Assembly (NCBI GenBank): GCA_018830525.1
Contig: JAHJSH010000017.1
Span: forward strand, 2,688-66,687
Length of the DNA stretch: 64,000 bases
Direction: 5' to 3'
Origin: Nanobdellota archaeon
GTDB lineage: Archaea; Nanobdellota; Nanobdellia; Pacearchaeales; GW2011-AR1
How positions within the stretch are numbered: the first letter of the stretch is position 1; each line of letters opens with the position of its first letter. A program made the position numbers and the translations under genes. This document shows, piece by piece, positions 7,459-63,358 of this stretch. Under the pieces are notes generated by a model. It saw nothing but the letters and a program-made list of their open reading frames with translations, did not search any database and was not told the DNA's origin.

Positions 7459-7605
7459 TTAGCTTGATATTAGTCTTTCTCCCGTCACCATCTTGTGACA
7501 TAAAAAGTCTAAAAATCATTTATAAATCTTGTCGCATGTCAATGGATATATTCCTTCTCGACAAGATATAAAAGTCGCATTGTCTTACACTTATGTCGAT
7601 GGACA

Positions 7606-8778
7606 ATGGAGAAAATCGACCCCTATAAACATAAAGAAAGATACCTTAGGTGGAAGGAGAAAATACAATCAACAATCCCAGAAATAAGCAAAGAAAATTC
7701 TGATTTAATATTGCAATATCTTAGAGATATGGAAAATGGAGTTAATATTGCAAGAGGTGTTAAAAAGGGCTCAAGAAGCTACATTCGACTTAACACTCTA
7801 AGGCAAAGAATGGTCTTTCTATCTAAAGAGTTTAAGGCTAGATTTGATTTAGACATACTTACTGGAATAAATGAAGCTCAATTATTTGAATTTTTCCAAG
7901 ATTTAAGAAGCGGTAAAATTGCCCGACGAGATGGAAAAACCTTCAAATCAGTTAAAGATTTTGCAAAAGACTTCAAGGCATTTTGGCATTGGTATCAAAA
8001 AAGAAACAAGAAAATAGGGAATGATATTTTTGACATAAGTGCAGATTTAGATGTAACTGGTGAAAAACCCGAATGGGTTTATCTGACAGAGGATGAAATA
8101 AAAAAACTGGCAGAAGCATCAAAATATTATTACAAGGTTTTAATCTGGTTTTTATTTGACTCTGGAATTCGAGCCCCCACAGAACTAATGAACATTAAAG
8201 TTTCGGATTTTTTCAATGACTTTAAGGAGTTAAATATTAGGCAGGAAATTAGCAAGACTTTTGGACGAAGAGTAAAACTGTTGATTTGCCATCAACTAAT
8301 AAAAGAATTTGTAAAAAACAATAATTTAGGTAATGATTCTTATTTGTTTACAACTATGCCCTATGATGTAAATAAATACCTTAAAAGGCTTGGAAAGCGG
8401 GTTCTTGGCGATGAAAAGAGCCCTGCAGGGGAGAAATACTCAAACATTACAATGTACGACTTTCGGCATTGTTCATGCTGTTATTGGCTTCCAAGGTATA
8501 AATCTGAATCTGCTTTGAAATATAGATTTGGATGGAAAAAATCTGAAAAAATCCATTATTATTCTGAATTACTGGGCATGAAAGATACAATCTCTGAAGA
8601 GGATTTATTGATTGATGTTACAAAAATAGAACTTGAGAGAAGAATAGACAAGGCAGAGAAAGAAAATCAAATGTTAAAAGAAGACAACGAGCAGATGAAA
8701 ATTCAAATCGCAACAATCGCTCAGCTTACTGCAGAAATGTATGCTCAAATGAAAGAAATTCAAGAGTTAGAGGCTTAA
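7606..8778 (+). CDS. int: Tyrosine recombinase/integrase
   Basis: C-terminal catalytic region (GIRAPTEL, YDFRHCSCCYW, HYYSELLG); paralogous to the ORFs at 40826 and 60346; adjacent to att repeat. Confidence 0.85.
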   Translation: MEKIDPYKHKERYLRWKEKIQSTIPEISKENSDLILQYLRDMENGVNIARGVKKGSRSYIRLNTLRQRMVFLSKEFKARFDLDILTGINEAQLFEFFQDLRSGKIARRDGKTFKSVKDFAKDFKAFWHWYQKRNKKIGNDIFDISADLDVTGEKPEWVYLTEDEIKKLAEASKYYYKVLIWFLFDSGIRAPTELMNIKVSDFFNDFKELNIRQEISKTFGRRVKLLICHQLIKEFVKNNNLGNDSYLFTTMPYDVNKYLKRLGKRVLGDEKSPAGEKYSNITMYDFRHCSCCYWLPRYKSESALKYRFGWKKSEKIHYYSELLGMKDTISEEDLLIDVTKIELERRIDKAEKENQMLKEDNEQMKIQIATIAQLTAEMYAQMKEIQELEA

Positions 8779-40608: not shown

Positions 40609-40706
40609 GGAAATCTTTGCATCAGCGATGTACCCCTCGGGCAAAAAGCATTTTTAAGAATATTAAAACGTAATGTTTAAAAAAGGATTCTAACATTTAT
40701 TCTCAT

Positions 40707-40778
40707 GCCTCAATAGTATAATGGTTAGTACACGGCCCTGTCGCGGCCGAGACCCGGGTTCAATCCCCGGTTGGGGCG
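40707..40778 (+). tRNA. tRNA-Asp(GUC), 72 nt
   Basis: Acceptor GCCTCAA/TTGGGGC, anticodon arm CGGCC-CTGTCGC-GGCCG, T arm CCGGG-TTCAATC-CCCGG. Confidence 0.92.
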
Positions 40779-40825
40779 TGAGACAAAAACGAACGGTTTA
40801 AATAAATCGCTTGTTTAGTTATTCT

Positions 40826-41947
40826 ATGAACATTAAGATTGATATTCACAATAGGAACTATGAATCTCGAAGAAAGGTGATTAAGACTTGGGAGATTCCC
40901 GACGTTGAGAAGAAAAAGTTTATTGAATTCTTGGATGAGATGGCTCTCGGCAGAGTAAACAAGGGCAAGAAGATTGGGGAGAATAGGCTATGCAAATATA
41001 TTTCTATGTTAAGAGTTCCTTTTGAATTTTGGAATAAATCTATGACGACACTCACCCTCCAGGATGTTAAGAATTTTGAACAGGATTTTTCATCAGGAAA
41101 AATAAAGACTAAGAATGGTGAAGAATTTGCAGATAGTTCTAAGGTAGATACTCGAAAGGCTCTTAGAATTTATCTTAGATGGCGACTCGGAACTGATAGA
41201 GCAAATAAGTTAGTTGATTGGTTAGACACACGAACCCAAGTCAAAACCCCCGAATTTCTAAGAGAAGAAGAAATTGAATTGCTTTATCGGAGTTGTCGAA
41301 ATGCCAAGGAAAGATTTTTGATTGCAGTATTATTTGATGCGGGTTGTCGTGCGGAAGAATTTCTTAATATCCGATATGAAGACGTATTTACTCCAAAGGA
41401 TTCTTCGAACTTTGTTAAGGTTGCCCTAAAAGAGGAATACAGCAAGACTAAGGGCAGAACTATCTCACTTTATTGGAAACATTCAGTTGAAGCAGTTAGA
41501 GATTATTTAGATGAGAGAAAATTTAGGGGAATAAAATCAACAGAACAAGTATACGAAGGAACTTATGATAAGGCAAGACAATTTATTCGACGGCTTGGAT
41601 TAAAAGTTTTAAACAAGCCTATCCATTTTCACCTATTTAGGCATTCTTCAGCGACATATTATGCTTCTCGATTGAATAGGCAACAACTTTGTATTCGGTA
41701 TGGATGGGCTTTTAGTTCTAATATGCCTGATGTCTATATTTCTCGGGCGGGAATGGAAGACAAGGAACTCGACGAGAGAATGGCAGGGACTAAGATTGAA
41801 AAGATACAAGAAGACTTTTTGAAGAAAGAACAGGAGATGAAAATTGAAATGGGTGAACTCCGAGAAAGATTAGACGGGCAGGAGTCCTTCAATAAACAAA
41901 TTCTTGAGAACATGAAGAAATTTAATCAGACACTTAATAAAAAATGA
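40826..41947 (+). CDS. int: Tyrosine recombinase/integrase
   Basis: FDAGCRAEEF (Arg), HFHLFRHSSATYY (HxxR), MPDVYISRAG (Tyr); 48 nt downstream of tRNA-Asp. ATG at 40826 preferred over TTG at 40811. Confidence 0.87.
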   Translation: MNIKIDIHNRNYESRRKVIKTWEIPDVEKKKFIEFLDEMALGRVNKGKKIGENRLCKYISMLRVPFEFWNKSMTTLTLQDVKNFEQDFSSGKIKTKNGEEFADSSKVDTRKALRIYLRWRLGTDRANKLVDWLDTRTQVKTPEFLREEEIELLYRSCRNAKERFLIAVLFDAGCRAEEFLNIRYEDVFTPKDSSNFVKVALKEEYSKTKGRTISLYWKHSVEAVRDYLDERKFRGIKSTEQVYEGTYDKARQFIRRLGLKVLNKPIHFHLFRHSSATYYASRLNRQQLCIRYGWAFSSNMPDVYISRAGMEDKELDERMAGTKIEKIQEDFLKKEQEMKIEMGELRERLDGQESFNKQILENMKKFNQTLNKK

Positions 41948-47593: not shown

Positions 47594-48040
47594 ATGGATA
47601 ATAAAATAAAATATTGGACAAAACACCAAGAGCTTGATAAATTTAATTATAATATTTCTTTTTCTTCCCTCATTGGACAATTATCGATGAGTATAGCCGT
47701 TTTAATTGGTGTCTTAGTAATAATAGTAACCACTAAGCAATTAGGTGCTTGGGGGAGAGTAATTTCAGTAGTAATTGTGGGGGGTATTTTCCTTTGGTGG
47801 ATGCAATCCAAACTAATTAAATCTCATCAAACAAAATTGAAAGAGACAAATAGAAGTTTTAGAATAAGAGAAGCGATGTTAAGAGTCTGGTATCAAGAAC
47901 TTGGAGTAGATACAGATTTATTGGATAAACAATATGAAGAAATTAAAGCTAAATCAAATCCAGAAATTCTAGAGAACAAACACTTCGAGAAAATTGCGAA
48001 GAAAGTAATTTTGAAATCTAAAAAGTTGAAGAAAAAATGA
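47594..48040 (+). CDS. Membrane protein (148 aa)
   Basis: Two adjacent TM helices, then a charged helical tail; ATGA overlap with the next gene. Confidence 0.5.
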   Translation: MDNKIKYWTKHQELDKFNYNISFSSLIGQLSMSIAVLIGVLVIIVTTKQLGAWGRVISVVIVGGIFLWWMQSKLIKSHQTKLKETNRSFRIREAMLRVWYQELGVDTDLLDKQYEEIKAKSNPEILENKHFEKIAKKVILKSKKLKKK

Positions 48041-49062
48041 CTAAAGACCATTTCGTTCCAGATTTTATTATTGAGAGTTTTGCCAATTCTGAAGGCAAGA
48101 TAATGTTCTATGATAAGGAGAATCACGAAGTTTCTAATCCGTTTCCTTATTCTACCCAGATGCGGAAAAAGAATTTTTATAGTAGGGAAACTCTTAATAA
48201 ACTAAAAAATCAATTTGATTACATACTTCTTAATCCAATTTTTTTAAAAGGTCAAAACCTTAATTTAGAAGATGCTTTGAGTTTATGTTTAGAGACTCCG
48301 ATGGGGGTTATTGCATCAAAGATTATTTCTGCATTCGGGCAAAAGAAGATGGCTCGCTTGACAGAAGAGGGAAAAAGATTTATAAAAGAGTACATTGCGG
48401 TACAACACATAAGAACCTTAAGTTTCAAAAGAAGGTCTATAGAGTTTAATAAGAAGTTTAATAACTTTCCATCAGAGGTTAAGGACTATCTTATAGAGAA
48501 TGAAAACTCCAGAACAATCCAAATTCGGTCTCTGATAAAACTGAAAAATCCTAATAAAAACACTAAAGAGAGATTTGAGATAGAAAAAGGATGGAGAAAA
48601 AAGCTAAAGAAAAATCCATATCTTATTCAAGAGATAAGAGAAAAACTCTTCAATGAAAAACTAAATAAAATGATGAAAGATGCGGAAGAGAACATTAAGT
48701 ATCTTCTTTTGCATCCCGAAAAACATTCTGTGGATATTATCGATAGGGGTTTTAGGAATAGTTTCTTTAAAAGATGTGATGTAGAAAATTTAAACGTGAG
48801 CATTATAGTAAATCAAACCCCAAACCATTTCGTTTTGACAGACACTGGGATTGTCTTAATGTCCGATAATCCATCGATGAATGAAAATCTTGAGATTTTT
48901 CTTCCCATTCATCCAAGAATTCTTATTCGTCTTTCTAAATCAGAAAAGGAAATCGAAAGTGTGAATAAACCCTTTGTGGATATTTTCAATAAGGTTTCAA
49001 AAGAGGATTCATATAAAAAAGTATACTCTGACTCAAAAGAAATCTTGGAAAGTCTTGTTTAG
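48037..49062 (+). CDS. DUF4238-like protein
   Basis: N-terminal KDHFVPDFIIESFAN resembles the DUF4238 opening motif (HYVPxFYLxxF); weak. Confidence 0.45.
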   Translation: MTKDHFVPDFIIESFANSEGKIMFYDKENHEVSNPFPYSTQMRKKNFYSRETLNKLKNQFDYILLNPIFLKGQNLNLEDALSLCLETPMGVIASKIISAFGQKKMARLTEEGKRFIKEYIAVQHIRTLSFKRRSIEFNKKFNNFPSEVKDYLIENENSRTIQIRSLIKLKNPNKNTKERFEIEKGWRKKLKKNPYLIQEIREKLFNEKLNKMMKDAEENIKYLLLHPEKHSVDIIDRGFRNSFFKRCDVENLNVSIIVNQTPNHFVLTDTGIVLMSDNPSMNENLEIFLPIHPRILIRLSKSEKEIESVNKPFVDIFNKVSKEDSYKKVYSDSKEILESLV

Positions 49063-49963: not shown

Positions 49964-49995
49964 GTTCGTTAATGTCACGCACTCGGTTGGGGCGT
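49964..49995. repeat. 27-bp direct repeat copy 2 plus full tRNA-Asp 3' core CGGTTGGGGCGT (49984-49995)
   Basis: The 12-nt core is identical to tRNA-Asp positions 40768-40779. Confidence 0.8.
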
Positions 49996-50161: not shown

Positions 50162-51403
50162 ATGGCAACAAAGTATGATGTTTTTGAATTAATATATGAA
50201 AATCGTGCCCCTATGAAACCGATTGAAGTAGTTAAGAAACTAAAAAAAGGTGAAGAAGACTATCATAACATCCATAAATTACTTAGAAGTCTAGTTAAGG
50301 ACAGAATATTAATTAAGGTAAAGGATGGATTTGAAATTAAGATCACTCCAAAAACAGAACTGTTATACAAACTAATCTATTATTGTACTCATAATGGTAT
50401 TAATTACAATCTTTTATTAGACAAAAACATAGCAAACTTTATTTATGAATCTTTAAAAAAAGAAGAATTTCAACAAAAATATATTAAAGTTAATCCAAAA
50501 ACATTTAAAAAATATATAGAAATCTTAGATAAATTTGGATTAATTCTGATAAGTTCTAAAAAACCATTAAAAGCAAGAATATTTGATAATGCCCTAATTA
50601 ATAATCTTTTGATTTATTTTGATTTTAAAACAAAACCTCAGAGAAAATACACAATTAATTACTTAGATGAAATAGAAAAAGAATTAAGTTTATACAAAAG
50701 ATTAAGAAAAAATAATGAAAAAGGATACCAAAAAATAGTTGATGAATTTGAAATACATTTTGTTCAACACAGCCTTTCTTTAGAGGGCAACCCTATAACT
50801 CTTCCAGACACAATAAAAATTTTAAAAGAAGAGATAATCCCAAGAGATTTGAAGAATGAAGATGTTGAAGAAGTTAAAAATTATCAAAATGCTATTCTTA
50901 GAATGCTTAGAGAGGCTCAACAAAGAAAATCTTTAACACAAGAATCAATCTTAGAATATCATAAGTTAGCTATGATTAATAAACCAAAAATTGCAGGAAT
51001 AATAAGAGATTACCCTGTTCGTATAGATAAAAATCCTAATTTTAAAACCGCAAAACCAGAAGAAGTAAAACCCTTACTTAAAGAACTATTAGAAAAATAT
51101 AATGAATTTCTTAAAAAGAAAAAAAGTACAATAAAAGAGATAGTCAATTTTTCTGCATATTTTCATAATCAATTTCAATACATTCATCCGTTTGGAGATG
51201 GAAATAGTAGAACTACAAGATTAATTACATTTCACTTATTGCATTTAAAGGGTATTCCTATGTTAGATATCCCTTTCGGATTATTAGATGAATATCTTAG
51301 CTACACTAAAGGTTCAAAGAAAAGAGATGACAAACAACTTTTCGAAAACTTACAAAAAACAATTTTATTTAATCTTAAAAAGATAAATGAAAGGTTAATT
51401 TAA
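50162..51403 (+). CDS. fic: Fic/DOC-family protein with N-terminal wHTH-like region
   Basis: YIHPFGDGNSRTTRL Fic motif; N-terminus MATKYDVFELIYE parallels MPTRYDVFAKIIE of the ORF at 12852. Confidence 0.85.
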   Translation: MATKYDVFELIYENRAPMKPIEVVKKLKKGEEDYHNIHKLLRSLVKDRILIKVKDGFEIKITPKTELLYKLIYYCTHNGINYNLLLDKNIANFIYESLKKEEFQQKYIKVNPKTFKKYIEILDKFGLILISSKKPLKARIFDNALINNLLIYFDFKTKPQRKYTINYLDEIEKELSLYKRLRKNNEKGYQKIVDEFEIHFVQHSLSLEGNPITLPDTIKILKEEIIPRDLKNEDVEEVKNYQNAILRMLREAQQRKSLTQESILEYHKLAMINKPKIAGIIRDYPVRIDKNPNFKTAKPEEVKPLLKELLEKYNEFLKKKKSTIKEIVNFSAYFHNQFQYIHPFGDGNSRTTRLITFHLLHLKGIPMLDIPFGLLDEYLSYTKGSKKRDDKQLFENLQKTILFNLKKINERLI

Positions 51404-51577
51404 ATTAAAAAGAAATTGTTGAAGAGTTCCCCGCATTAAAAGAAAAAAGGTCTTCTTTTGGTTACAGACTTATGTTTTGCAGAACTTATGAAGAATTAAT
51501 GAACACAATCAAGAAATTAAAGAACGAGCCAGTTATGCCTTTGTTGCTGTGGATGTATAAGGAGGGTTAGGGTTTAG

Positions 51578-52099
51578 CTATTTTCTACAACCCATTAGAA
51601 TATTCTTTAAATTCAAATCTTTCTCGTATTTTTCTCCAGTTTTAAGAAAGGCATATCCTACTCCAAGTAAATCAACCCCTGTTAGAATTTGAGGAAAAGG
51701 AGATAACCCATTTTGAGTGAGAAATTCTTCTCTTTCTTTAGGAGCGAGAAACCCATAACATTGCTGAGAAATTCTGCTAGGTTCAAGAAAAACTTTTAAG
51801 GGATTCTGTAATTTTTCATCAACCATCTCTTCTAAAATTAAATACCCACACCCTTTACGAATTGCACTGCCAATTTCCTTATTGGATTTGTTAGCATCAA
51901 AATCATAAAAACTATTCCCATAAGCTATATATTCTTCAATTTTTGAAGAGGGATAAAGAGATTTAATTTTATTATGAATATTTTCTATAACCTCTCGTGC
52001 ATTTAGAATATTCTTTGCAAAGACTTGCTCATATTCATCATCAGAGTCTAGCCTATATTCAGTTTCTCCATGAGTTACAATTGATTTTTTATTTTCCAT
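51578..52099 (-). CDS. Hypothetical protein (173 aa)
   Basis: ORF only; follows the 73-aa ORF with a 4-nt gap. Confidence 0.45.
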   Translation of the reverse strand: MENKKSIVTHGETEYRLDSDDEYEQVFAKNILNAREVIENIHNKIKSLYPSSKIEEYIAYGNSFYDFDANKSNKEIGSAIRKGCGYLILEEMVDEKLQNPLKVFLEPSRISQQCYGFLAPKEREEFLTQNGLSPFPQILTGVDLLGVGYAFLKTGEKYEKDLNLKNILMGCRK

Positions 52100-52103
52100 T
52101 TTA

Positions 52104-52325
52104 TTAACCTCGTTCTAAAACTTTTTCAATCTTAAAGGAAAAATCTTTTTTCTCTGATAGCTCCATTCTATCAACTAACTTGGAATAAGGACATTCTCCA
52201 AAAAACATTCCTCCCTCAAATAAAGCCCTATACCCATTATTTGTCTTTAAAACATTCTTATCACAGATAAGTAAATCATTCCAATTACATCCATGATTTT
52301 TTGGGCATTGATATTCATGTTCCAT
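52104..52325 (-). CDS. Hypothetical Cys-containing small protein (73 aa)
   Basis: MEHEYQCPKNHGCNWNDLLICDK...ECPY; no family recognised. Confidence 0.4.
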   Translation of the reverse strand: MEHEYQCPKNHGCNWNDLLICDKNVLKTNNGYRALFEGGMFFGECPYSKLVDRMELSEKKDFSFKIEKVLERG

Positions 52326-52438
52326 TTTATTTTAATTTTACTTGAAATATACAGGTTTTAGGTATATATAGGATTTACTTACCCATTCATACCCAAAAAA
52401 GGGAAATATTTATAAATAAGGTATATTTATGGTTAAAT

Positions 52439-53455
52439 ATGGTAGAAATAAAGCCCACACTAGACAATAAAGATTTAAAAATATTATTTGAACTTGACAA
52501 GAATTCAAGAATTCATATTTCTAGTTTAGCTAAGAAATTAAGAATTTCAAGAGAGATCATAAAATATAGAATCAAAAAGTTAACTTCCGAAGGGATTATA
52601 AGAAATTTTACAACAATAACAAATCCCTCAAAATTTGGTTATTTAATCTATAAAGTCTACCTTAAATTTCAGAATTTTACAAAAGAAAAAGAAGAAAGAC
52701 TAAATAAATACATTTTATCTAACAAGAATATTTTCTGGATTGCTAAATGTGATGGAAGTTTTGACCTTATTTTGGGAATTTATGTTAAGAATTTAATGGA
52801 ATTTAATAATATCCTACTCGACTTCATGAGCAAGTTCAGCCAAAACATATTATCAAGGCACATTAGCAACTCGGTTTACGTAGACATATATAGAAGAGAA
52901 TATCTAAATCATGGCAAATCGGAAAGGGTAACTTGGGGAGGAGATTTTTCAGAAGAAAAATTGGATAATTTAATGAAAGGAATTCTAAAAATAATCTCTA
53001 AAGATTCTAGGACTTCTGTTGTTGATTTAGCATATAAATTAAAATCAACCCCAAAAACTATTATTTCTAAGATTAAGGAAATGGAGAAAAAACAAATTAT
53101 CTTAGGATATAGGGTAAATTTGGATTTAAAAAAAATAAAAAGGGAATATTTCAAAGCAATCATTTATTTTAGAAATATATCTCACGAAAGAGAAGAGGAA
53201 TTTAAAGAATATTGTCAAAAAAATCCAGATATTGCTTACTATATAAAAACTATAGCCGAATGGGATGCAGAATTAGATATAGAAATAGAAAACTTCACTG
53301 AATTTAATAGATTAACAAGGGAAATAAAAGAAAAATTCGGAGATATAATAAAAACAATAGATACGGTTTTTATTTCAGATGAAATGAAGGGCGAATTAAA
53401 TATCGTTCAGAATCTGTCACCCTCTTATGACAAGCCCTATCCACAAGATATATAA
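52439..53455 (+). CDS. Tandem-duplicated Lrp/AsnC-family transcriptional regulator
   Basis: Two HTH_AsnC-like modules: LDNKDLKILFELDKNSRIHISSLAKKLRISREIIKYRIKKLTSEGII and MKGILKIISKDSRTSVVDLAYKLKSTPKTIISKIKEMEKKQII. Confidence 0.75.
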   Translation: MVEIKPTLDNKDLKILFELDKNSRIHISSLAKKLRISREIIKYRIKKLTSEGIIRNFTTITNPSKFGYLIYKVYLKFQNFTKEKEERLNKYILSNKNIFWIAKCDGSFDLILGIYVKNLMEFNNILLDFMSKFSQNILSRHISNSVYVDIYRREYLNHGKSERVTWGGDFSEEKLDNLMKGILKIISKDSRTSVVDLAYKLKSTPKTIISKIKEMEKKQIILGYRVNLDLKKIKREYFKAIIYFRNISHEREEEFKEYCQKNPDIAYYIKTIAEWDAELDIEIENFTEFNRLTREIKEKFGDIIKTIDTVFISDEMKGELNIVQNLSPSYDKPYPQDI

Positions 53456-53544
53456 ATAAAACCCCCTACACACATTCAACAATAAACACAAGTCCGCAAA
53501 AAGAACTTGTGCATCACTCTATTATACCAAAAAGGGTGCTTTTA

Positions 53545-53556
53545 CGGTCGGGGCGT
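53545..53556. repeat. tRNA-Asp 3' core copy CGGTCGGGGCGT
   Basis: 11/12 match to the tRNA end; followed by TTAGGGGCGTA (53575) and three ACTTTGTNTACRTTA repeats (53563, 53585, 53603). Confidence 0.6.
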
Positions 53557-53621
53557 TGAGTAACTTTGTGTACGATTAGGGGCGTACTTTGTCTACATTA
53601 TCAATTTTGTCTACATTAGAA

Positions 53622-53795
53622 TTAGGAGGCTTCTTTCAAAATCTTAGCATCACCAATTATTCTACATCCATATTCCTCTAAATCAACTCCTAACTTTCCA
53701 CACTTGCAAATATCCATTTTATGATGCTCCTTACTATAACTTTTTAATTTTTCATTACAATGAGGACATTGCCATTCAATTGTTTTATTTATCAT
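53622..53795 (-). CDS. Zinc-ribbon small protein (57 aa), candidate partner/antitoxin of the RelA/SpoT-like gene
   Basis: Below track cutoff; MINKTIEWQCPHCNEKLKSYSKEHHKMDICKCGKLGVDLEEYGCRIIGDAKILKEAS; its ATG lies inside the last codons of the upstream gene (11-nt overlap). Confidence 0.5.
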   Translation of the reverse strand: MINKTIEWQCPHCNEKLKSYSKEHHKMDICKCGKLGVDLEEYGCRIIGDAKILKEAS

Positions 53796-54855
53796 TTAAA
53801 ATTTTCTCCAGATATTTTAAAAACTCTCGTGTGTCTACAAAGTAATTAGGATAAGCCTTTTCTAAATCACTAGCTTTATCTGCCCCAACTAAAACAACAT
53901 CATATCCATGGTTATTTTGATTTATTTTCTCTGCCCTAGAATAATCTGAAATTGCATGTTCCTCATCTTCTTTAGGATATCCTGTTAAGTTAAGTTTTTC
54001 TTGCAAAACATCAAGCTCCAAAAGGAAAAATTTAAGGTTCGGTTTTTCTTTAGCAACTTGTCTAAAAACCCTCACAGCCGATGACCACCCCTTCATGATC
54101 TTTATAACTTGCAATTCTTTTTCTTTTTCTTTTATCTGAGCGTATAATTCTTTCAAATCGGTGGGAGTGTTTGGAACAAGGGGAGTTTTTTCCATTATAG
54201 CGAAAGCTGAACTAACTAGTCTAAAGAAATCTTTCCACTCTTTTTCCCCTTCATTAGATTTTATCGCTTGTCTGGTAAACAAATCTACTGTCTCAATTGC
54301 TGTTGCCCAAAGATGTTGAAGTTTAGACCGTATTTGGATTTCTATTTGTAATCCATTATAATCCTTCTTGCCCTCCTTATTGCTTTTATATTTATATACC
54401 AAATGAATACTACGATAACCATCGGATTTTGGATATGAAATATAGTCTTTCTCGCTGACTTTAGTGTGTTTCAGGTCGCTATGAATATAGCCCTCTTTGT
54501 AGAGTTTTTTTGCTAAAAGAACATTAGACACAACAGCTCTACATCCTGCAATATCTTGCATTCGTGAAAGCTTCATTGAAGATTTCTCTCCAGAATACAC
54601 TCTTTGTAATTTTTTTAAAATAGATGGGAGCCTTTTTAGCCTTTGAACGCTCACAGCATTATTATCAATTTTTTCCGAAACTAATTTTAATCTTTTTTTA
54701 AAAATGTGCATAGGGTATCTATGTATAGCTCTCCAATTATCTAAGATACGAAGTGCCTCATCTTTTTCATCTAAAGAACTATTCTTGTCAATTAGAATAT
54801 TTCCTGCCCAATTCACTCTTTTCTTGCTATATCCTTCAGATTTTACCCAAACCAT
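53785..54855 (-). CDS. RelA/SpoT-domain nucleotide pyrophosphokinase (small alarmone synthetase / toxSAS-like)
   Basis: RLKRLPSILKKL, MQDIAGCRAVV, YISYPKSDGYRSIHLVYKY, IEIQIRSKLQHLWATAIE: the synthetase-fold motif series. Confidence 0.8.
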   Translation of the reverse strand: MVWVKSEGYSKKRVNWAGNILIDKNSSLDEKDEALRILDNWRAIHRYPMHIFKKRLKLVSEKIDNNAVSVQRLKRLPSILKKLQRVYSGEKSSMKLSRMQDIAGCRAVVSNVLLAKKLYKEGYIHSDLKHTKVSEKDYISYPKSDGYRSIHLVYKYKSNKEGKKDYNGLQIEIQIRSKLQHLWATAIETVDLFTRQAIKSNEGEKEWKDFFRLVSSAFAIMEKTPLVPNTPTDLKELYAQIKEKEKELQVIKIMKGWSSAVRVFRQVAKEKPNLKFFLLELDVLQEKLNLTGYPKEDEEHAISDYSRAEKINQNNHGYDVVLVGADKASDLEKAYPNYFVDTREFLKYLEKILNDK

Positions 54856-54888
54856 AATAAATTATAATGATAAGACTATTTAAATCTT

Positions 54889-54986
54889 TGTTTTGGGCGG
54901 TTTTTAATTGATAAAAATATAGTTTTGGGCGGTAATTTTTATGCATAAATCGGTATTTATAGAATAAAAATATAGTTTTGGGCGGT
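54889..54986. promoter_or_regulatory. Iterons upstream of the RelA/SpoT-like gene: TTTTGGGCGGT x3, two within a perfect 23-mer
   Basis: ATAAAAATATAGTTTTGGGCGGT at 54911-54933 and 54964-54986; shorter copy at 54889-54901 abutting a TTTAAATAG TATA-like box. Confidence 0.55.
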
Positions 54987-55172
54987 TTTATTACTTTAAT
55001 TCAATGGCTTTGGGCAACAGTCCAAATTTTACCCTCAAACACATTCATCTCAACTTATACCAACATCTCTTTCACCCCCTAGTGGTCGACAAGATTTACA
55101 AGTAAAACCCACCAACCACAATAAAGCAAACAAAACCGACATCCCTTTAGGATGCACGACTGGGGTCGTGGG

Positions 55173-55184
55173 CGGTTGGGGCGT
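55173..55184. repeat. tRNA-Asp 3' core copy CGGTTGGGGCGT
   Basis: 12/12 match; preceded by hairpin CACGAC-TGGG-GTCGTG and followed by TTAGGGCGTAG, as at 53575. Confidence 0.7.
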
Positions 55185-55270
55185 AGTTAGGGCGTAGCAC
55201 CATCAGCGTCGATAAAACTGATGATTTTTGTGTTTGTCTTCGGTGAAATGCTGATTATCTCAGGTATAAC

Positions 55271-55283
55271 AAAGCTTATATAA
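55271..55283 (+). promoter_or_regulatory. BRE/TATA-like AAAGCTTATATAA
   Basis: 34 nt upstream of the ATG at 55317; a similar AAGCTTTTTATAT precedes tRNA-His (around 14320). Confidence 0.45.
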
Positions 55284-55316
55284 CCCGTTTTTCTTCAAAA
55301 ATATGAGGAAACTAAA

Positions 55317-55418
55317 ATGTCAAAATGTACAGCAGTTCTAGATGCGAAGAAAGTCGAAAGCATCACATTGGAAGATTCTAGTGAATCTTTGAATGCCGAT
55401 ACTGAATCTTTAGATTAA
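55317..55418 (+). CDS. Candidate precursor peptide (33 aa)
   Basis: GAGG 8 nt upstream of the ATG; MSKCTAVLDAKKVESITLEDSSESLNADTESLD; stop lies 13 nt before the radical SAM gene. Confidence 0.4.
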   Translation: MSKCTAVLDAKKVESITLEDSSESLNADTESLD

Positions 55419-55431
55419 GTCTTTCTTTTGA

Positions 55432-56718
55432 ATGGTAAAGAAATTAGATTGCCCTAGTGTACCTCATTTGGTACACATCGAGACCACCTATAGGTGTAAT
55501 CAAAAATGTATTTTCTGTTATAACCCTAATCGAGATTGTTCTATTGATTATGAAAAACTTGATCGGATCGTAGATAGTGTGTCAAAATCAAATATCCCTC
55601 ACGTTTACTTAATAGGAGGGGAGCCTTCAATTTTGAAAATTGAGAAACTGAATGAGTATATAGATAAGCTTTCGAAAACTTCTTCGGTGACAATAGTAAC
55701 AAATGGTATAAGATATCTTGATGGTTTGTCTAAAAATCTTGCATGCATCGGAATTCCAATTCATGGGGATAAGAAAACTCATGAGTATCTAACAAATAAT
55801 CCGGGAGGATATGATACTACAATAACAAATGCTAAGAAATATATCAAGGAAGGTTTTGATGTCAGATGTATTCCCGTCCTTATGTCAATAAATTATAATC
55901 AAATGTATGATGTAATTAAACTTGCAGCGGAAATGGGTATGGAAAGTGTTTTCGTAGACCGTTTTGAATCTGGAGGAATTGGGAGTAAGCTGACAAATGA
56001 ATTGATGCCTTCAAATGAACAATTTTTTAAGGCACTTGATCAAATGATTAAAGCAAGGAAAGATTTTGCAATCCCTCTAGGTTTTGGAACTGCAATTCCT
56101 TACTGCTTAGACAAAAGAATGATTGAAGAAGACATTAAGGCTAATTGTGGTGCAGGAGTTACATTTGGTGCAATTAATCCACAAGGAGATTTTAGAATCT
56201 GTAACCAATCTCTAAAGATATATGGTAATGTTCTTGAGGAACCAGTGGAAAAGATATGGAATAAAAAGGAACTTGACGAATTCAGGGATTTAAGTTGGGT
56301 GACTGAACCTTGTATTAATTGCGATTTGTTACATGAATGTGTTTGTGGATGTAAGGTTGATACAAGTTGTTCTGGAGAGTTCTGTGTCGATTGCTCTGTG
56401 AGGGGATGCAAAGAGCCAGTCAATAAAGTTGCAATTAAAAAAGAAGTTCCGAAGATTGGGGTTCCTGAAAAAATGAGGAGATTTAAACGAAATAAGTATC
56501 TGCGTTTAAATAGTTCACACAAGGAAATTTATCTGGTTACAAGATATCAAACAATAAAAGTTGATAAATTTCTTGAAGAAGTTATTGAGTATATTCTGAA
56601 AAATGAATATATTCTAGAAAAAGAGCTTATTAATAATTTTAATAATATGGCTGATGAAAAGACCATAAGGATTATTCTTTCCAAACTTTGTTTAGTTGGA
56701 GCATTAGATCAAATATAA
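55432..56718 (+). CDS. Radical SAM enzyme with SPASM domain and C-terminal PqqD/RRE-like tail
   Basis: CNQKCIFC (CX3CX2C), LIGGEPS, CGAGVTFGAINPQGDFRIC (CX12GX4C), CINCDLLHECVCGC (CX2CX5CX3C). Confidence 0.85.
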   Translation: MVKKLDCPSVPHLVHIETTYRCNQKCIFCYNPNRDCSIDYEKLDRIVDSVSKSNIPHVYLIGGEPSILKIEKLNEYIDKLSKTSSVTIVTNGIRYLDGLSKNLACIGIPIHGDKKTHEYLTNNPGGYDTTITNAKKYIKEGFDVRCIPVLMSINYNQMYDVIKLAAEMGMESVFVDRFESGGIGSKLTNELMPSNEQFFKALDQMIKARKDFAIPLGFGTAIPYCLDKRMIEEDIKANCGAGVTFGAINPQGDFRICNQSLKIYGNVLEEPVEKIWNKKELDEFRDLSWVTEPCINCDLLHECVCGCKVDTSCSGEFCVDCSVRGCKEPVNKVAIKKEVPKIGVPEKMRRFKRNKYLRLNSSHKEIYLVTRYQTIKVDKFLEEVIEYILKNEYILEKELINNFNNMADEKTIRIILSKLCLVGALDQI

Positions 56719-56720
56719 AA

Positions 56721-58145
56721 ATGGAAATCACAAACTGCGACTGGGAAATCACTACTGGCTGTAATCTCTCATGTAAACATTGTATAATCAACTGTAAACC
56801 TGAAATAGAACTTTCTACAACACAATGTTTTTATGCAATTGACAAGCTTAAGGAATTTGGTTGCAAGCAGATTAATTTTACGGGAGGGGAAGCTCTTTTT
56901 AGAAATGATTTTCCAGAAATTTTAAAATACTCTTTTGAAAAGGGTATCGTAAATACTGTTTTCACAAATGGTATACTTCTTAAAAAAGAAATTTTAGATA
57001 AAATAAAAAAGTATGTAACTTATTTTGCAATCAGTCTGGAAGGTCCTCAAGAAGAAAATGATTCAATAAGGGGAAGTGGCACCTTCACTAAAACATTGGT
57101 CGCAATAAGATTGTTAAAAATGGAAAATATCCCTTTCGGAATACATATAACCTTAACTTCAAAAAATTATTCTTCATTAAATAAAACATTAAATCTTATC
57201 AAAGAATTGGAACCGTTTAATATTAGCATTAATCAATTAGTCTTAAAAGGGAGAGCCTTAGAAAATAAAGAGGAACTTGATTTGGATATTAATGTTGATA
57301 AGATTCTTTCAATTGTACGAGAGATTTTTCCCGAAGAGGAATTTTCTAAGGATAAGGGATGTAAGGCAAAACCTTCTTCGATAGTTTTAACGAGTGAAGG
57401 AAATATTTATTCATGCACAGAAATTAGGCAGAATTGTCCTGCAAGAAATATTGGGAATATCTTAGACGATACCCCTAAGAAAGAATCTGAAATAGTTTAC
57501 AACTCATGCAAATGTCCATATTATTCCTACAATTCAAGGAGGATAAGCATTAATTTTTTAACAGGGGATGGGTGTGCTGCATTAGAAGAAGATAATTGGG
57601 GGGATCAAGAACTCTTCCCAGGCATTGGAGAGATTTGTAAAAATTGTACAATTTGTTGTAAAACTTATGGTTGGTTAACTTCCTCCGAATCAAGGATGTT
57701 TGTTGAGCAAAAAATTCCTACCGTTAAATTTAATGGATGTGTTTCTTGTATTGATTCCTTCGATAAAGATTCAACTGGAGAAAGGATTTTAGAAGAAATT
57801 CCTATTTGTAGATTCTATAAAAATGAAAGATGTCTAATTCAAGATAAAAAGCCATTAGATTGCCAATTGTTTCCAATAAAGATAAAAGTCAGAAATGGGA
57901 ATGTTTTTTTAGGCCTAAGTAGGGATTGCAAATATATTTCATCCCTAAGTGAAAATGAAAAAGAAGCCCTATATCTTAGAGTGATCAGATATCTGAAACA
58001 TAACTTGGATGGAAAGTTAAAAGATTATTTAGATCTGAGAGTTGAGGTAGATAAAATTTCAATGCCAAAAGATTTTGCTATGAAAGAAATAGTCTCTCTA
58101 TCCCAGAAAAAGGGTGGATGGATTATTGAAGAAACTCTAGTCTAA
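56721..58145 (+). CDS. Radical SAM enzyme (twitch-like) fused to a CxxCxxCC (YkgJ/UPF0153-type) metal-binding domain
   Basis: CNLSCKHC, FTGGEAL, CKAKPSSIVLTSEGNIYSC, then CKNCTICCKTYGW...CRFY...C..Q..KP..C..FP. Confidence 0.8.
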   Translation: MEITNCDWEITTGCNLSCKHCIINCKPEIELSTTQCFYAIDKLKEFGCKQINFTGGEALFRNDFPEILKYSFEKGIVNTVFTNGILLKKEILDKIKKYVTYFAISLEGPQEENDSIRGSGTFTKTLVAIRLLKMENIPFGIHITLTSKNYSSLNKTLNLIKELEPFNISINQLVLKGRALENKEELDLDINVDKILSIVREIFPEEEFSKDKGCKAKPSSIVLTSEGNIYSCTEIRQNCPARNIGNILDDTPKKESEIVYNSCKCPYYSYNSRRISINFLTGDGCAALEEDNWGDQELFPGIGEICKNCTICCKTYGWLTSSESRMFVEQKIPTVKFNGCVSCIDSFDKDSTGERILEEIPICRFYKNERCLIQDKKPLDCQLFPIKIKVRNGNVFLGLSRDCKYISSLSENEKEALYLRVIRYLKHNLDGKLKDYLDLRVEVDKISMPKDFAMKEIVSLSQKKGGWIIEETLV

Positions 58146-60255: not shown

Positions 60256-60274
60256 CCCCGGTCGGGGCGTGAGA
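60256..60274. repeat. tRNA-Asp 3' end copy CCCCGGTCGGGGCGTGAGA
   Basis: 18/19 match to 40765-40783 (CCCCGGTTGGGGCGTGAGA); followed by an integrase gene at the same spacing class as at the tRNA. Confidence 0.8.
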
Positions 60275-60345
60275 AAATAGTTTTACGTACTGAAAAGATA
60301 TAATCGTGGTATATAAACCAAAAAAGATTATATCTTTCAAGTACA

Positions 60346-61533
60346 ATGGATATACATAACTACCAAAAAAGATTTGAAAGAACCTTAGAAAGAATTAACG
60401 AAGCTGATACTTGCCAAGAAAACAAGGATTCTATTTTTAGATTTAAAGATTATTTATTGAGTGAAAATCTCAGCATCGCTAAAATTGACAGATACCTCTA
60501 CGACCTGATGAGGTATTGTGATATGCTTTCTAAGCTCATTGAAGCCGCAGATAAGCAAGATCTCCGAAAAGTCGTAGGAATTATTAACCAAAAAATTTGG
60601 ACAGAAGAAACAAAGAAATGTTTTAAGGTAATGTTAAAAAGATATTACAGATTTGTGGCAGGAATTGAAGAAAAAGGAGTTTATCCTGAAATTATAAATT
60701 GGGTAAATACAAATATTGCCGAGAGTAAAAGAAAACTTCCCGAAGAATTATTAAATGAATCTGAAATAAAAAATATTATTCAAAAGTGTACTTGCATTCG
60801 GGATAGAGCTTTAATCTCGGTGTTGGCAGAATCAGGTTGTAGGATTGGAGAAATTGGAACTCTAAAAATCAAGAACATGAGTTTTGAACAATATGGGACA
60901 AGACTTACTGTTAATGGGAAAACAGGAATGCGGAAAATTCTAGTTATTAATTCAACCCCTTATTTGCAAGAATGGATTAATCATCATCCAGATAACGAAA
61001 ATCCTGAAGCTTATATGTGGGTAAGGGCAGATGGAAACACCTTATGCTATGCAAGGATTTCCCATATCTTAAAAAGGTCTGCCCAAAAAGCAGGAATCAA
61101 AAAACGAGTTTACCCTCATCTATTAAGGCACAGCCGGGCAACACATTTAGCGTCAATCATGAGAGAAGCTTCCATGAAACAATATTTCGGATGGACTCAA
61201 AGTTCAAGAATGGCAGGAGTTTATATTCACATGTCAGGGAAAGATACCGACAACGCAATTTTACAAGCAAGTGGAATTAAGATTGAAGAAAAGGAAATCG
61301 CAAGAGATATGCAACCTAAAATTTGCATAAGATGTAGCTCGACAAATCCTGTGACAAATGTTGTCTGTGGAACTTGTGGTCTACCATTAGATAAAAAACA
61401 AGCAGAAGAAATTATTACCAATCAAACTAAGAAGGAGAATATTGATAGTTTTATGAATAAGATTGTAGAAAATCCTGAATTTCTAAAAGTGTTAGTTAAA
61501 AAAATGGCGGAGGTGAATAAGATACAGAAGTGA
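60346..61533 (+). CDS. int: Tyrosine recombinase/integrase with C-terminal zinc ribbon
   Basis: ESGCRIGEI (Arg), YPHLLRHSRATHL (HxxR), MAGVYIHMSG (Tyr), CIRCSSTNPVTNVVCGTCG. Confidence 0.87.
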   Translation: MDIHNYQKRFERTLERINEADTCQENKDSIFRFKDYLLSENLSIAKIDRYLYDLMRYCDMLSKLIEAADKQDLRKVVGIINQKIWTEETKKCFKVMLKRYYRFVAGIEEKGVYPEIINWVNTNIAESKRKLPEELLNESEIKNIIQKCTCIRDRALISVLAESGCRIGEIGTLKIKNMSFEQYGTRLTVNGKTGMRKILVINSTPYLQEWINHHPDNENPEAYMWVRADGNTLCYARISHILKRSAQKAGIKKRVYPHLLRHSRATHLASIMREASMKQYFGWTQSSRMAGVYIHMSGKDTDNAILQASGIKIEEKEIARDMQPKICIRCSSTNPVTNVVCGTCGLPLDKKQAEEIITNQTKKENIDSFMNKIVENPEFLKVLVKKMAEVNKIQK

Positions 61534-61745
61534 AGTGGAAAACGCTGCGCGTTTTCCAGTTTGTTTAAGTTTATATATTTATTCACCTCTTGAGAAATGA
61601 TGATAATACTGAATAATCAGTAATATTATTGAAACATCAATAGTAAATCGTAAATCTCGATACCCCGTGGTAAATCGTTGGGAAAAGATTTAAATACCTG
61701 TTTTTATTGTTTTAGATTATACTATCATACATAGTTTTATCAAAA

Positions 61746-62492
61746 ATGAAAAAAACAAAGAAAAATCAAGGTTTAAGCCCAAATCAGGAAAGAATAATGT
61801 CTATCTTGGAGTATAAAAAAATAACGATCATCGAGAGAAACGAAATAATAGATTTAATAAAAAAACACATGCAAGTAAAAGATGTAGGTGATTTAATTTC
61901 AAAGCTTTTATTTAAGGAAAGACTTATCCCAATAAAAAAGGGTGTCTATGCTGTTATCCCTCTAAGTTCCCTCGATAAAACTACAAAATTAAGTAATATT
62001 GAAATAGTAGATTATCTGTTGAGGGATAATTATTACATCGGACTTTTTAACGCTTACAACTTTCATGGATTTACAGAACAAATTCCCAATAAACTATTTA
62101 TTTTCAATACAAAATATTCTGCAGATAAAAAGATACTAAATTACCAATTTAAACTTTTCAAGGTGAAAAAGGATAAGTTGTTTGGAATTTTAGGCAACCA
62201 ATATTCAGACAAAGAAAGGACAGCTATTGATGCATTAAATTATCCAGAATACTTAGGAGGACTAAAGCAAGTTCTAGACCAAATTAGAAAAATATCCTTT
62301 AATCAGAAAATACTGGTAGATTATGCTATTAGATATAATAGCAATAAAGTAATTAAACTAGTGGGGTTATTAACAGAGAGCAATAAACTATTCAAGTTAC
62401 TTGAAAAAAAGAAGGCTTTGAATTATTATACAACAATTAAAAAAACTGGAACTAAATTATTGAATAAAAAATGGAAACTGAGATTGATTTAA
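61746..62492 (+). CDS. AbiEi-like antitoxin
   Basis: N-terminal wHTH-like region ending KKGVYAVIP; overlaps the AbiEii gene by 22 nt. Confidence 0.6.
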   Translation: MKKTKKNQGLSPNQERIMSILEYKKITIIERNEIIDLIKKHMQVKDVGDLISKLLFKERLIPIKKGVYAVIPLSSLDKTTKLSNIEIVDYLLRDNYYIGLFNAYNFHGFTEQIPNKLFIFNTKYSADKKILNYQFKLFKVKKDKLFGILGNQYSDKERTAIDALNYPEYLGGLKQVLDQIRKISFNQKILVDYAIRYNSNKVIKLVGLLTESNKLFKLLEKKKALNYYTTIKKTGTKLLNKKWKLRLI

Positions 62493-63358
62493 AAGAAGAA
62501 ATTTTAAGAATAGGTGCAAAGAATGGCTTTGCTCCAAGGCTGATAGAGAAAGATTATCATCTTACGAGAATTCTTCATAAAATTAGTGAAAGGAATATAG
62601 AAAATCTAGTGTTTAAGGGTGGAACATGCCTCAATAAATGCTATCTTGGGTTTTATAGATTAAGTGAAGATTTAGATTTTGTTTTGAATCAAGATGTAAA
62701 TAAATTCTCAAGATCACAAGTAAAGAAAATTTTAGACAATTTAAGACGAGAAATTATTGGTATATTGGACGAACTCGGACTAGAAATAAATAAGAAACTA
62801 GGTGTTGGATGGAAAATGCTGACTTCAAAAGAAGCTTCTAAAATATTAGGTTTAGAAGTTGCGACCAAATACAAATCAGTTCTCGATGATACTCTACAAA
62901 ATATAAAAATAGAAATTTCATTCAGAAAGGCATTAATAAATCCTACAAAAAGACAGCCAATTCATCATGATTTTGTTGATGCTCTTGGAGAATTCATTTT
63001 AAAAGAGAATGTCGAGGTAGAAGCAATTGATCTAGTCGAAAATTTTGCGGAAAAATTTAGAGCATTAGTAACCCGGGAAAATATAGCGATTAGAGATATT
63101 TTTGATATTTACTTTATATTAGAAAAAGATATCCTAAATTTTAATGATAAAACTCTTGAATTAGCTTTACTTAAGATAAATGAAACTCCAGAATATTCTT
63201 ACGAGATAAAAGATTTTGAAGAATTTATAAAAGATCTTCATTTAAAAGTAGATGGTCTAAATGAGAAAGAACTGTCGGCGGTTTTAAGATCTAATGGGGA
63301 AGCTAAAATACTCGAGATGATTAAGTTGATTAAGAAAAAAGTTTTGAAATCTAAATAA
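62471..63358 (+). CDS. AbiEii/AbiGii-family nucleotidyltransferase toxin
   Basis: VFKGGTCLNKCYLGFYRLSEDLDF; paralog of the ORF at 1777-2697. Confidence 0.75.
   Translation: METEIDLKEEILRIGAKNGFAPRLIEKDYHLTRILHKISERNIENLVFKGGTCLNKCYLGFYRLSEDLDFVLNQDVNKFSRSQVKKILDNLRREIIGILDELGLEINKKLGVGWKMLTSKEASKILGLEVATKYKSVLDDTLQNIKIEISFRKALINPTKRQPIHHDFVDALGEFILKENVEVEAIDLVENFAEKFRALVTRENIAIRDIFDIYFILEKDILNFNDKTLELALLKINETPEYSYEIKDFEEFIKDLHLKVDGLNEKELSAVLRSNGEAKILEMIKLIKKKVLKSK

Follow-up and report, generated by a model that had tools for sequence, protein, structure and literature searches.

A fused CapRel-type gene from a Nanobdellota archaeon with phased promoter repeats that co-vary with a residue of its toxSYNTH domain

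CapRel SJ46, encoded in a Salmonella prophage, combines a toxSYNTH domain, characteristic of toxic small alarmone synthetases (toxSAS), with a C-terminal cis-antitoxin in a single polypeptide (PDB 7ZTB and 9ERV; PMC9712102). Its key residues are the adenine-site arginines R79 and R116, the catalytic Y155, the interface residues V338, L339 and A351, and the YXXY residues Y352 and Y355 (Zhang et al., 2022; PMC9712102); the roles of R79, R116 and Y155 are described in a second source as well (10.64898/2026.04.06.716658). A homologous toxSYNTH domain is present in the bicistronic toxSAS toxin-antitoxin (TA) systems, such as PhRel/Gp29-Gp30 of phage Phrann and the Mycobacterium tuberculosis CapRel with its antitoxin (Jimmy et al., 2020; Kurata et al., 2021), and stand-alone toxSAS antitoxins are homologous to the CapRel C-terminal domain (PMC9712102). 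Members of toxSAS subfamilies have been noted in ‘even some archaea’ (Kurata et al., bioRxiv 10.1101/2021.04.30.441581), and the portions of the CapRel literature available to us otherwise list bacterial phyla only. In this study we analyzed a 64,000-nt stretch of DNA (the window; contig JAHJSH010000017.1, positions 2,688 to 66,687) from a Nanobdellota archaeon. It contains a CapRel-like fused toxSAS gene of 356 aa (53785..54855, minus strand), which is preceded by an array of short repeats and, like the CapRel SJ46 gene, is a solitary gene on mobile or island DNA.

The 356-aa open reading frame (ORF) carries the RelA/SpoT synthetase motifs DIAGCRAVV, GYRSIHLVYKY, and EIQIRSKLQHLWA. RelA_SpoT (PF04607) is its sole Pfam domain (residues 71-185, E 1.9e-18), and no HD hydrolase domain was found in the Pfam search. 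Over its full length the protein matches the PADLOC model PDC-S33, a single-gene defence candidate (E 2.9e-117, 390 bits), which corresponds to the fused CapRel family because CapRel SJ46 itself matches that model only, more weakly (7e-87, 290 bits). The best relatives with a solved structure are 7ztb and 9erv, both CapRel SJ46 (E 2.9e-44); residues 9-351 align to residues 15-368 of these structures with about 30% identity, including the C-terminal domain, which ordinary small alarmone synthetases (SAS) lack. An AlphaFold2 model (pLDDT 83, pTM 0.78) matches CapRel across its whole length in Foldseek (TM 0.72-0.78, 356-360 columns), whereas SAS structures of the RelP/RelQ type match the N-terminal half alone (query-normalised TM ~0.4).

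According to the alignment with CapRel SJ46, the N-terminal toxSYNTH (pyrophosphokinase) domain spans residues 1 to about 265 (54061..54855, minus strand), with the codon of the G-loop Tyr147, the counterpart of Y155, at 54415-54417. The C-terminal cis-antitoxin/sensor domain (about residues 270-356; 53788..54048), pseudo-zinc-finger-like and without cysteines, was delimited by its sequence and fold match to SJ46, and contains the YXXY autoinhibition motif as YPNY (residues 335-338; 53842..53853), aligned to Y352/Y355. R79, R116, and Y155 of SJ46 correspond to R72, R106, and Y147; V338, L339, A351, Y352, and Y355 correspond to V321, L322, A334, Y335, and Y338. All eight residues are invariant in an alignment of 24 relatives, and prophage CapRels also carry AYPNYF. 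The C-terminal domain is the least conserved part of the protein, likewise in bacterial CapRels. We considered a markedly higher conservation of this domain in the DPANN clade and discarded the idea, the difference being modest (identity 0.69 in the DPANN clade versus 0.63 in bacterial CapRels, against 0.74 for the N-terminal part in both, for pairs at 60-80% identity). Over its full length, the 356-aa protein belongs to the fused CapRel toxSAS family (PDC-S33). Given this match and the conserved cis-antitoxin residues, it is a fused toxin-antitoxin, as opposed to a bare toxSAS that would require a partner. The first-pass annotation of this DNA, which had read the ORF as a toxSAS-type synthetase with the RelA/SpoT motif series and no hydrolase domain, was thus correct and can be made more precise.

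Relatives of the protein form 3332 protein clusters, the best 120 of which are 64-90% identical to it; every named cluster among these 120 is from DPANN archaea. For the analysis of the genomic context, DNA loci were compared with the window (designated L001, L130, etc., and mostly encoding CapRel homologues). They include the best 80 of at least 550 stretches that encode a relative in a species-level genome collection, and 80 metagenome loci, fetched independently of the former, out of 339 metagenome matches in all. The best 80 genome loci belong mostly to Woese-, Pace-, Nano-, Aenigm-, Micr-, Iain-, and Nanohaloarchaeota, and also include metagenome-assembled genomes (MAGs) of Methanoperedens and ‘Methanosarcinales’ and a few bacterial MAGs. 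The DPANN genome homologues are 55-91% identical to the window protein. In a neighbour-joining (NJ) tree a DPANN-rich clade is separate from the prophage CapRels (30-42% identity), and the copies in a bacterial context are nested in one subclade. This bacterial context is genuine as judged by the neighbouring genes, which encode trigger factor and TsaD (L034), DnaN (L055), or a Sua5-TsaE fusion (L063). The overall distribution is patchy, linked to islands and tRNA genes, and horizontally mobile, with bacterial genomes included.

We should note that taxon labels of such MAG contigs need care. Locus L068 is labelled Patescibacteria, has an archaeal-type TATA box at -29 and a neighbouring gene for a 239-aa protein with Rpb3/RpoA insert and Rpb3/Rpb11 dimerisation domains; its label may be wrong. 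L082 (IMG/VR GVMAG-S-1041346-124_000001) encodes a 60% identical CapRel homologue, keeps the upstream repeats described below as ACCGCGCAA, and was binned as a giant-virus MAG, probably wrongly. It is the only clade-type match in IMG/VR; the others are bacterial prophage CapRels (30-42% identity), which generally lack the repeats.

The gene is thus of a known kind, a fused CapRel catalogued as PDC-S33 and deposited from many DPANN MAGs. The suggestion that an archaeal toxSAS would be new was overstated, considering the earlier remark on archaea cited above and the hundreds of DPANN homologues already deposited as ‘RelA/SpoT domain-containing protein’. Our literature search returned nothing on ‘PDC-S33’ and nothing tying CapRel or toxSAS to DPANN. 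The novelty appears to lie in the operator array, clade-specific and self-recognised, and in the distribution across DPANN and bacteria of the candidate phyla radiation (CPR).

The upstream region contains the sequence TTTTGGGCGGT exactly three times (54891, 54923, and 54976), and it occurs nowhere else in the window. Two of the copies lie inside an identical 23-mer, 53 bp apart, and the proximal copy abuts the TATA box, as the first-pass annotation had reported; the 23-mers are part of a repeat of 36 nt and 86% identity (repeat D3). In the orientation of the gene (minus strand), copy 1 reads ACCGCCCAAAA (54891..54901) and is positioned at -45, directly upstream of the TATA box and its B recognition element (BRE). 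It is followed, away from the gene, by copy 2 (54923..54933) at 32 bp, copy 3 (54976..54986) at a further 53 bp, and a degenerate, distal fourth copy, GTTGCCCAAAG (55008..55018), at another 32 bp. The core promoter (54877..54890), as read from the sequence, comprises the TATA box TTTAAATA (54877-54884), 29 nt before the ATG, and an A-rich BRE-like stretch. The promoter can be summarized in gene orientation as three to four units of ACCGCCCAAAAC, then AAAGATTTAAATAGT, about 25 nt, and the ATG. L001, L058, L134, and L140 have an intact fourth copy with this spacing, and the fourth copy forms the 5′ edge of the module common to close relatives. DNA homology with the six loci L001, L134-L136, L138, and L140 (84-87% nucleotide identity) spans only ~53783-53800 to ~54990-55016, and stops at the CapRel stop codon. 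The module is therefore self-contained and about 1.23 kb long, consisting of four phased direct repeats, the BRE/TATA element, and the ORF.

The same layout is kept down to about 55% protein identity, with the proximal copy at -45, the TATA box at -29/-30 (as in most homologous loci), and further copies at -98, -130, and -162. Extra upstream copies of a locus's own proximal 10-mer, counted with one mismatch allowed, are present in 36 of 47 TATA-anchored loci and in none of 42 downstream control regions of equal size. All copies are direct, and their spacings cluster at 32, 53-55, 85, and 117 bp, i.e., whole helical turns. An exactly repeated upstream 9-mer was found in 59 of 71 clade loci, versus three of 43 CapRel loci from IMG/VR (mostly prophages), one of the three being the clade-type locus L082. 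The members in a bacterial context (L034, L035, L046, L054, L055, and L063) have their GCGCAA repeats joined to a -35-like TTGACA, as in the promoter GCGCAATTTGACA of the L034/L046 type, and miss the archaeal TATA box at -29. The module has apparently been re-tooled for bacterial transcription.

The repeats differ between loci in one central base, GCGCAA or GCCCAA, while all copies within one locus agree. Column 159 of the protein alignment separates the two repeat types perfectly in the 80 genome loci, where this was first seen. The independent metagenome loci gave the same result: without exception, the 12 GCCCAA loci have N159 and the 57 GCGCAA loci D159; six further loci with D159, in which the copies are too few or mixed, were not classified. 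In the combined non-redundant set, D159 is found in 97 of 97 GCGCAA loci, and N159 (16) or Q159 (1) in 17 of 17 GCCCAA loci. Of the 356 columns, only column 159 has no residue common to both repeat types; in the next best column, six sequences have a residue that occurs in both. Treated as a character, the repeat type requires five parsimony changes on an NJ tree calculated without column 159 (at least four in all 100 bootstrap replicates), and four changes on an NJ tree of residues 1-158, the part nearest the promoter (at least three in 99% of the replicates). Such repeated, independent switches mean that the covariation is not simple shared ancestry or linkage. Residue 159 (Asn in the window protein, codon 54379-54381) is located in a Lys-rich loop, K155-Y-K-S-N-K-E-G-K-K164 (54364..54393, minus strand), between the G-loop strand and the EIQIRS strand, and in the clade the loop reads K-Y-K-S-[D/N]-K-E-G-K-K. 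The corresponding loop of CapRel SJ46 is acidic (SCFDEENGNNPWSK), and that of the prophage CapRels, in which the repeats are likewise missing, differs as well. The 3′ flank of the repeat also co-varies with the deletion of one residue from the loop, a signal that is suggestive and confounded by phylogeny.

Because the central repeat base co-varies with residue 159, these data suggest that the CapRel-like protein itself recognises its upstream repeats. The first-pass annotation had taken the repeats for a regulatory element serving the small protein encoded downstream of the large gene; a conserved, phased array beside the TATA box agrees with the first half of that idea, and the matching factor would be the large protein instead of the small one. 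In its full form, the proposal is that the toxSYNTH domain acts as a sequence-specific reader which places its Lys-rich loop on the four phased promoter repeats, with Asp/Asn159 specifying G/C, and so serves as its own repressor in a circuit portable between archaeal (BRE/TATA) and bacterial (-35/-10) promoters; we hold this to be just on the probable side. DNA is favoured over RNA as the bound form because the proximal site is fixed just upstream of BRE/TATA, because the sites are helically phased, and because they stay coupled to a core promoter element in both domains of life. This coupling also makes repression by occlusion a better fit than activation.

Combined with the conserved architecture, a reasonably probable overall picture is that of a single-protein CapRel fused toxin-antitoxin: a cis-inhibited, virus-triggered, tRNA-modifying toxin that reads its own phased repeats. 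By homology to CapRel SJ46, the C-terminal domain would hold the toxSYNTH domain inactive, with YPNY (335-338) plugging the ATP site between R72 and R106. Binding of a viral protein to the C-terminal domain would lift this block, and the active enzyme would then move pyrophosphate from ATP to the 3′ CCA end of tRNAs, so that translation halts and the infection aborts. The protein would further bind its own repeats through loop 155-164, residue 159 specifying the central G/C base pair, and the promoter would be autoregulated, most likely repressed, without a separate antitoxin or repressor. Both the enzymatic activity and the viral trigger are thus predictions by analogy, as are, from the promoter arrangement, the sign of regulation and the choice of DNA over RNA.

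Several points weigh against this picture. No recognisable DNA-binding domain was found in the CapRel-like protein, and the CapRel/toxSAS literature searched makes no mention of operator binding, DNA-binding activity, or autoregulation by CapRel. The covariation indicates a functional coupling that fits DNA and RNA recognition alike, and the count of independent switches is derived from NJ trees of one protein. The picture also presumes that residue 159 is exposed at the surface. The enzymatic activity in this clade is predicted purely by homology, and the viruses of DPANN archaea, from which a trigger would have to come, are barely characterised. Since no clear sequence signature separates tRNA-modifying from nucleotide-modifying toxSAS (Kurata et al., bioRxiv 10.1101/2021.04.30.441581), the tRNA substrate is assigned by family membership only.

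The organization resembles the autoregulation of type II TA systems in its iterated sites, which overlap or abut the core promoter of the toxin, and in forming a self-contained, portable circuit. It differs in that the putative specificity residue is part of the toxSYNTH domain of a fused protein and not of a dedicated DNA-binding antitoxin domain, and in that the sites are direct repeats at a spacing of three, five, and three turns, not palindromes. Compared to CapRel SJ46, which represents a type found in enterobacterial prophages, the window clade is mainly DPANN with a nested CPR-like bacterial set, has phased upstream repeats that co-vary with residue 159, an archaeal BRE/TATA promoter, and, in the window protein, a Lys-rich loop 155-164 in place of the acidic one; the activity and the viral trigger of the window protein are predictions. 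A 338-aa protein with two winged-helix modules (HTH_24/AsnC-type; 52439-53455) is encoded in the adjacent segment. It is not conserved near CapRel homologues and can therefore be set aside as the repeat-binding factor.

Among the alternatives, recognition of the repeats as RNA deserves most attention, even though we rate it as unlikely. Copies in a 5′ leader would bind the enzyme, resulting in translational autoregulation or in an RNA inhibitor loosely comparable to type III TA systems or to RelQ. The residue-159 covariation is as compatible with this readout as with DNA binding, and in CapRel tRNA is bound by the toxSYNTH fold. Inhibition by single-stranded RNA is reported for RelQ (Beljantseva et al., 2017, cited in PMC11782079), which provides a precedent for sequence-dependent nucleic-acid binding by the SAS fold. 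RelQ differs in being a tetrameric housekeeping SAS that binds mRNA-like single-stranded RNA, with no gene-linked repeats or co-varying residue. In the RNA model, transcripts would start at TATA-like boxes after the distal repeats, and an A/T-rich TATA-like box does follow each repeat copy in archaeal loci (TTGACA in bacterial ones). Against the model, the best-conserved copy has its fixed position at -45, just upstream of BRE/TATA, so that transcription from the main promoter would not include it. The copies are also helically phased (32/53/85/117 bp), a property at the level of DNA. The repeats also do not seem to be arranged as the head-to-tail tandem repeats, transcribed upstream of the toxin, of type III TA systems: the conserved unit has only 11-12 nt (up to 23 nt), the units are spaced by 32/53/32 bp instead of being head-to-tail, and the proximal copy lies upstream of the TATA box. 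No Rfam family matched the repeat region, a scan of 53300-55400 giving sub-threshold chance matches only. Taken together, we continue to favour the protein as a reader of DNA.

In a second alternative, the protein would be an alarmone synthetase with a housekeeping or stress function, producing (p)ppGpp or (pp)pApp, and a host transcription factor would act on the repeats. Homologues are indeed publicly annotated as ppGpp synthetase or GTP pyrophosphokinase; the protein is very widespread and, at the 55-91% identity given above, well conserved in DPANN genomes, and the proposed tRNA substrate has no sequence signature. We consider it improbable all the same, since the match to CapRel is full-length and includes the antitoxin domain and the YXXY motif beyond the SAS core, while the patchy and mobile distribution, extending to bacterial genomes, and the window neighbours (Fic, AbiE genes, integrases) do not point to a housekeeping role. 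Moreover, neither the retention of the repeats in archaeal as well as bacterial promoters nor their covariation with residue 159 can be explained by a host factor.

The small ORF named by the first-pass annotation is present at 53622..53795 (minus strand). It encodes a 57-aa CxxC...CxC zinc ribbon (ZnR), and its ATG overlaps the last 11 nt of the CapRel gene. With a dN/dS of 0.07-0.24 against its relatives, it is a real gene under purifying selection. Its family has only four members among 5.8e9 proteins, and its match to DUF7695 is weak and under the Pfam cut-off. No homologue was found by tblastn in the 80 genome and 80 metagenome CapRel loci (best E 0.12 and 0.88), and no neighbour gene of any kind is conserved within +/-2.5 kb in the 80 genome loci. 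A conserved adjacent antitoxin that co-occurs with the toxin is thus missing, and the locus has the form of a single-gene system, unlike bicistronic toxSAS; the zinc-ribbon ORF is lineage-specific and unrelated to the antitoxins of those systems.

The relatives of the small ORF follow other genes. A 79% identical copy (L131) comes directly after a Fic gene with a 1-nt gap; that Fic (span 63-1500, including the zinc-ribbon gene) is 63% identical to the Fic encoded in the window at 50162-51403, where the Fic and zinc-ribbon genes are 2.2 kb apart on opposite strands. An 82% identical copy (L130) overlaps the end of an unrelated gene of unknown function by 11 nt, as in the window, and a homologue of the att-like flank 55072-55184 described below comes after it. 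The most distant copy (L132) is found within a string of small ORFs. In both L130 (88-98) and the window (53785-53795) the upstream gene ends inside the small ORF via the overlap ATGRTAAATAA, so the stop and last codons of the upstream gene come from the small-ORF module. The window CapRel ends in KILNDK, the L001 homologue in KILMDVIKP. A simple inversion (51404-53795) linking the Fic-ZnR order of L131 to the CapRel-ZnR order of the window would also invert the att copy at 53545, and the arrangement in L130 differs again from both. The small gene thus appears to be mobile, changing from the 3′ end of one toxin-type gene to that of another. Its varied upstream genes and its absence from other CapRel loci make it a small promiscuous island gene, joined to the CapRel 3′ end in this lineage only.

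The zinc-ribbon ORF was accordingly rejected both as a conserved partner of CapRel, being absent from 160 homologous loci without any conserved neighbour, and as the repeat-binding factor, as the repeats persist in all relatives without it. The pairing proposed in the first-pass annotation, a two-gene type II TA system of a toxSAS toxin and a 57-aa antitoxin that is also the repressor binding the repeats, is suggested by the 11-nt overlap (translational coupling), the purifying selection, and the tight following of toxin-type or other genes by the relatives (Fic in L131, the same overlap in L130), and is nevertheless very improbable, because the ORF is missing even from 89-92% identical relatives that keep the repeats, its family is minute, homology with the six close relatives extends no further than the CapRel stop codon, a cis-antitoxin domain with the YXXY motif is still present in the CapRel protein itself, and the repeat sequence co-varies with the large protein.

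Integrative elements are known to accrete in tandem at tRNA genes, including integrase-less, att-flanked elements of the ‘CIME’ type, a concept from streptococcal integrative and conjugative elements (ICEs). The att-like sequences that the first-pass annotation had seen on either side of the gene, at 53545 and 55173, are both copies of the tRNA-Asp 3′ end and belong to a larger, integrase-associated array. The 12-mer CGGTYGGGGCGT occurs five times in the window (40768, 49984, 53545, 55173, and 60259; 0.02 expected), spanning 20 kb. The first copy (40768-40779) is formed by the last 12 nt of tRNA-Asp(GTC) (40706..40779, plus strand; found by ARAGORN, pattern search, and alignment), which is directly followed by a tyrosine recombinase gene (40811..41947, plus strand; Phage_integrase, E 6.5e-10). 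The second core (49984..49995, plus strand; pattern search and alignment) lies between the integrase/DUF4238 segment and the Fic segment. The CapRel segment is bounded on the left by CGGTCGGGGCGT (53545..53556, plus strand), with a partial second copy TTAGGGGCGTA at 53576-53586, and on the right by CGGTTGGGGCGT (55173..55184, plus strand), with a partial second copy GTTAGGGCGTA at 55186-55196; the flank 55087-55184 is conserved in L001, L140, and L130. The last core (60259..60270, plus strand) has the longest match to the tRNA end (CCCCGGTCGGGGCGTGAGA), and precedes an integrase gene (60346-61533) and AbiEi/AbiEii.

The att copies mark off four segments and the start of a fifth. The first (40.8-50.0 kb) contains the integrase, small ORFs and, at its end, a gene for a DUF4238 protein (48037-49062, E 7.8e-23); the second (50.0-53.5 kb) the Fic/DOC-family gene (50162..51403, plus strand; Pfam Fic, E 5.6e-14) and the double winged-helix Lrp/AsnC-like protein; the third (53.5-55.2 kb) the zinc-ribbon ORF and CapRel; the fourth (55.2-60.3 kb) a short peptide ORF, two radical-SAM enzymes (one with SPASM), an HDAC-like protein, a methyltransferase, and an acetyltransferase; and the fifth (from 60.3 kb) an integrase, then a 248-aa ORF (likely AbiEi) and AbiEii. 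Several of these cargo segments carry defence-type genes. The 1.6-kb CapRel segment has no integrase gene of its own, integrases adjoining two of the att copies; the integrases of the window are only 21-26% identical to one another. From its sequence, the CapRel segment is best described as a short integrase-less segment in a tandem array of elements integrated at tRNA-Asp. The cores are short, at 12 nt, which weighs against this description. Similar to CIME-type arrays, direct repeats of the tRNA 3′ end bound successive segments, recombinases are found at some att copies, and some segments are integrase-less. The array differs from these in its DPANN setting, its 12-nt core, and segments as small as 1.6 kb with a single defence gene, and it is known from sequence alone.

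Comparable cassettes are found elsewhere. L001, whose CapRel is 91% identical, has the same att core three times, bounding a RelE/AbrB-like cassette and a segment with the CapRel gene and an integrase. The former is a 0.9-kb segment between two att cores (2378-3281) with a putative RelE/ParE-like ORF (2556-2867) and a convergent, putative AbrB/SpoVT-like ORF (2859-3131), both labels coming from a reading of the translations. L071 (3530-5803) provides an independent example at another tRNA: a CapRel homologue and two small ORFs occupy a 2.2-kb integrase-less segment that is flanked on both sides by a directly duplicated 31-nt stretch of the tRNA-Met 3′ end. A tRNA gene is present within 4 kb in 18 of the 80 genome loci.

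Some further features of the island were observed. A third tyrosine integrase (7606-8778, in the window region 7270-8778) is 56% identical to the L001 integrase (5273-6400) located beside the CapRel gene. It is preceded by the inverted pair TCTTGTCG...CGACAAGA (7527/7559). TCTTGTCG occurs four times in L001, with two copies (2483 and 3371) ~90-105 nt from att cores, and its reverse complement is found near 55087, ~85 nt from the att core at 55173; these motifs may be arm-type sites. In the fourth segment (55317-58145), a 33-aa ORF (MSKCTAVLDAKKVESITLEDSSESLNADTESLD) immediately precedes the genes of the two radical-SAM enzymes, the first with SPASM (55432-56718) and the second at 56688-58145, and the set looks like a precursor plus maturases of the type known for ribosomally synthesized and post-translationally modified peptides. 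At 60259-63358, the integrase (60346-61533) follows the att copy and is itself followed by the 248-aa ORF and an AbiEii-domain protein, which together look like an AbiEi/AbiEii abortive-infection pair. Another Fic gene is located beyond the end of the window (locus L081).

CapRel is a paradigm for direct sensing of a viral protein by a bacterial immune protein. A large, conserved DPANN clade, nested with CPR-like bacteria, would extend this mechanism to ultra-small symbiotic archaea, in which virus defence is poorly known, and the universal tRNA CCA target fits a transfer of CapRel between the domains of life. In the tRNA-Asp array, short att-bounded segments without an integrase build up beside integrase-bearing ones, which illustrates a way in which a defence island can grow. 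Finally, from the covariation one would expect a toxSAS domain to read the repeats of its own promoter, and an N159D exchange to switch the site preference. If true, one protein would combine the functions of toxin, antitoxin, and sensor with repression of its own gene, which would be a regulatory mode new to toxSAS/CapRel immunity proteins and would offer a rare specificity switch that can be read directly from natural covariation.

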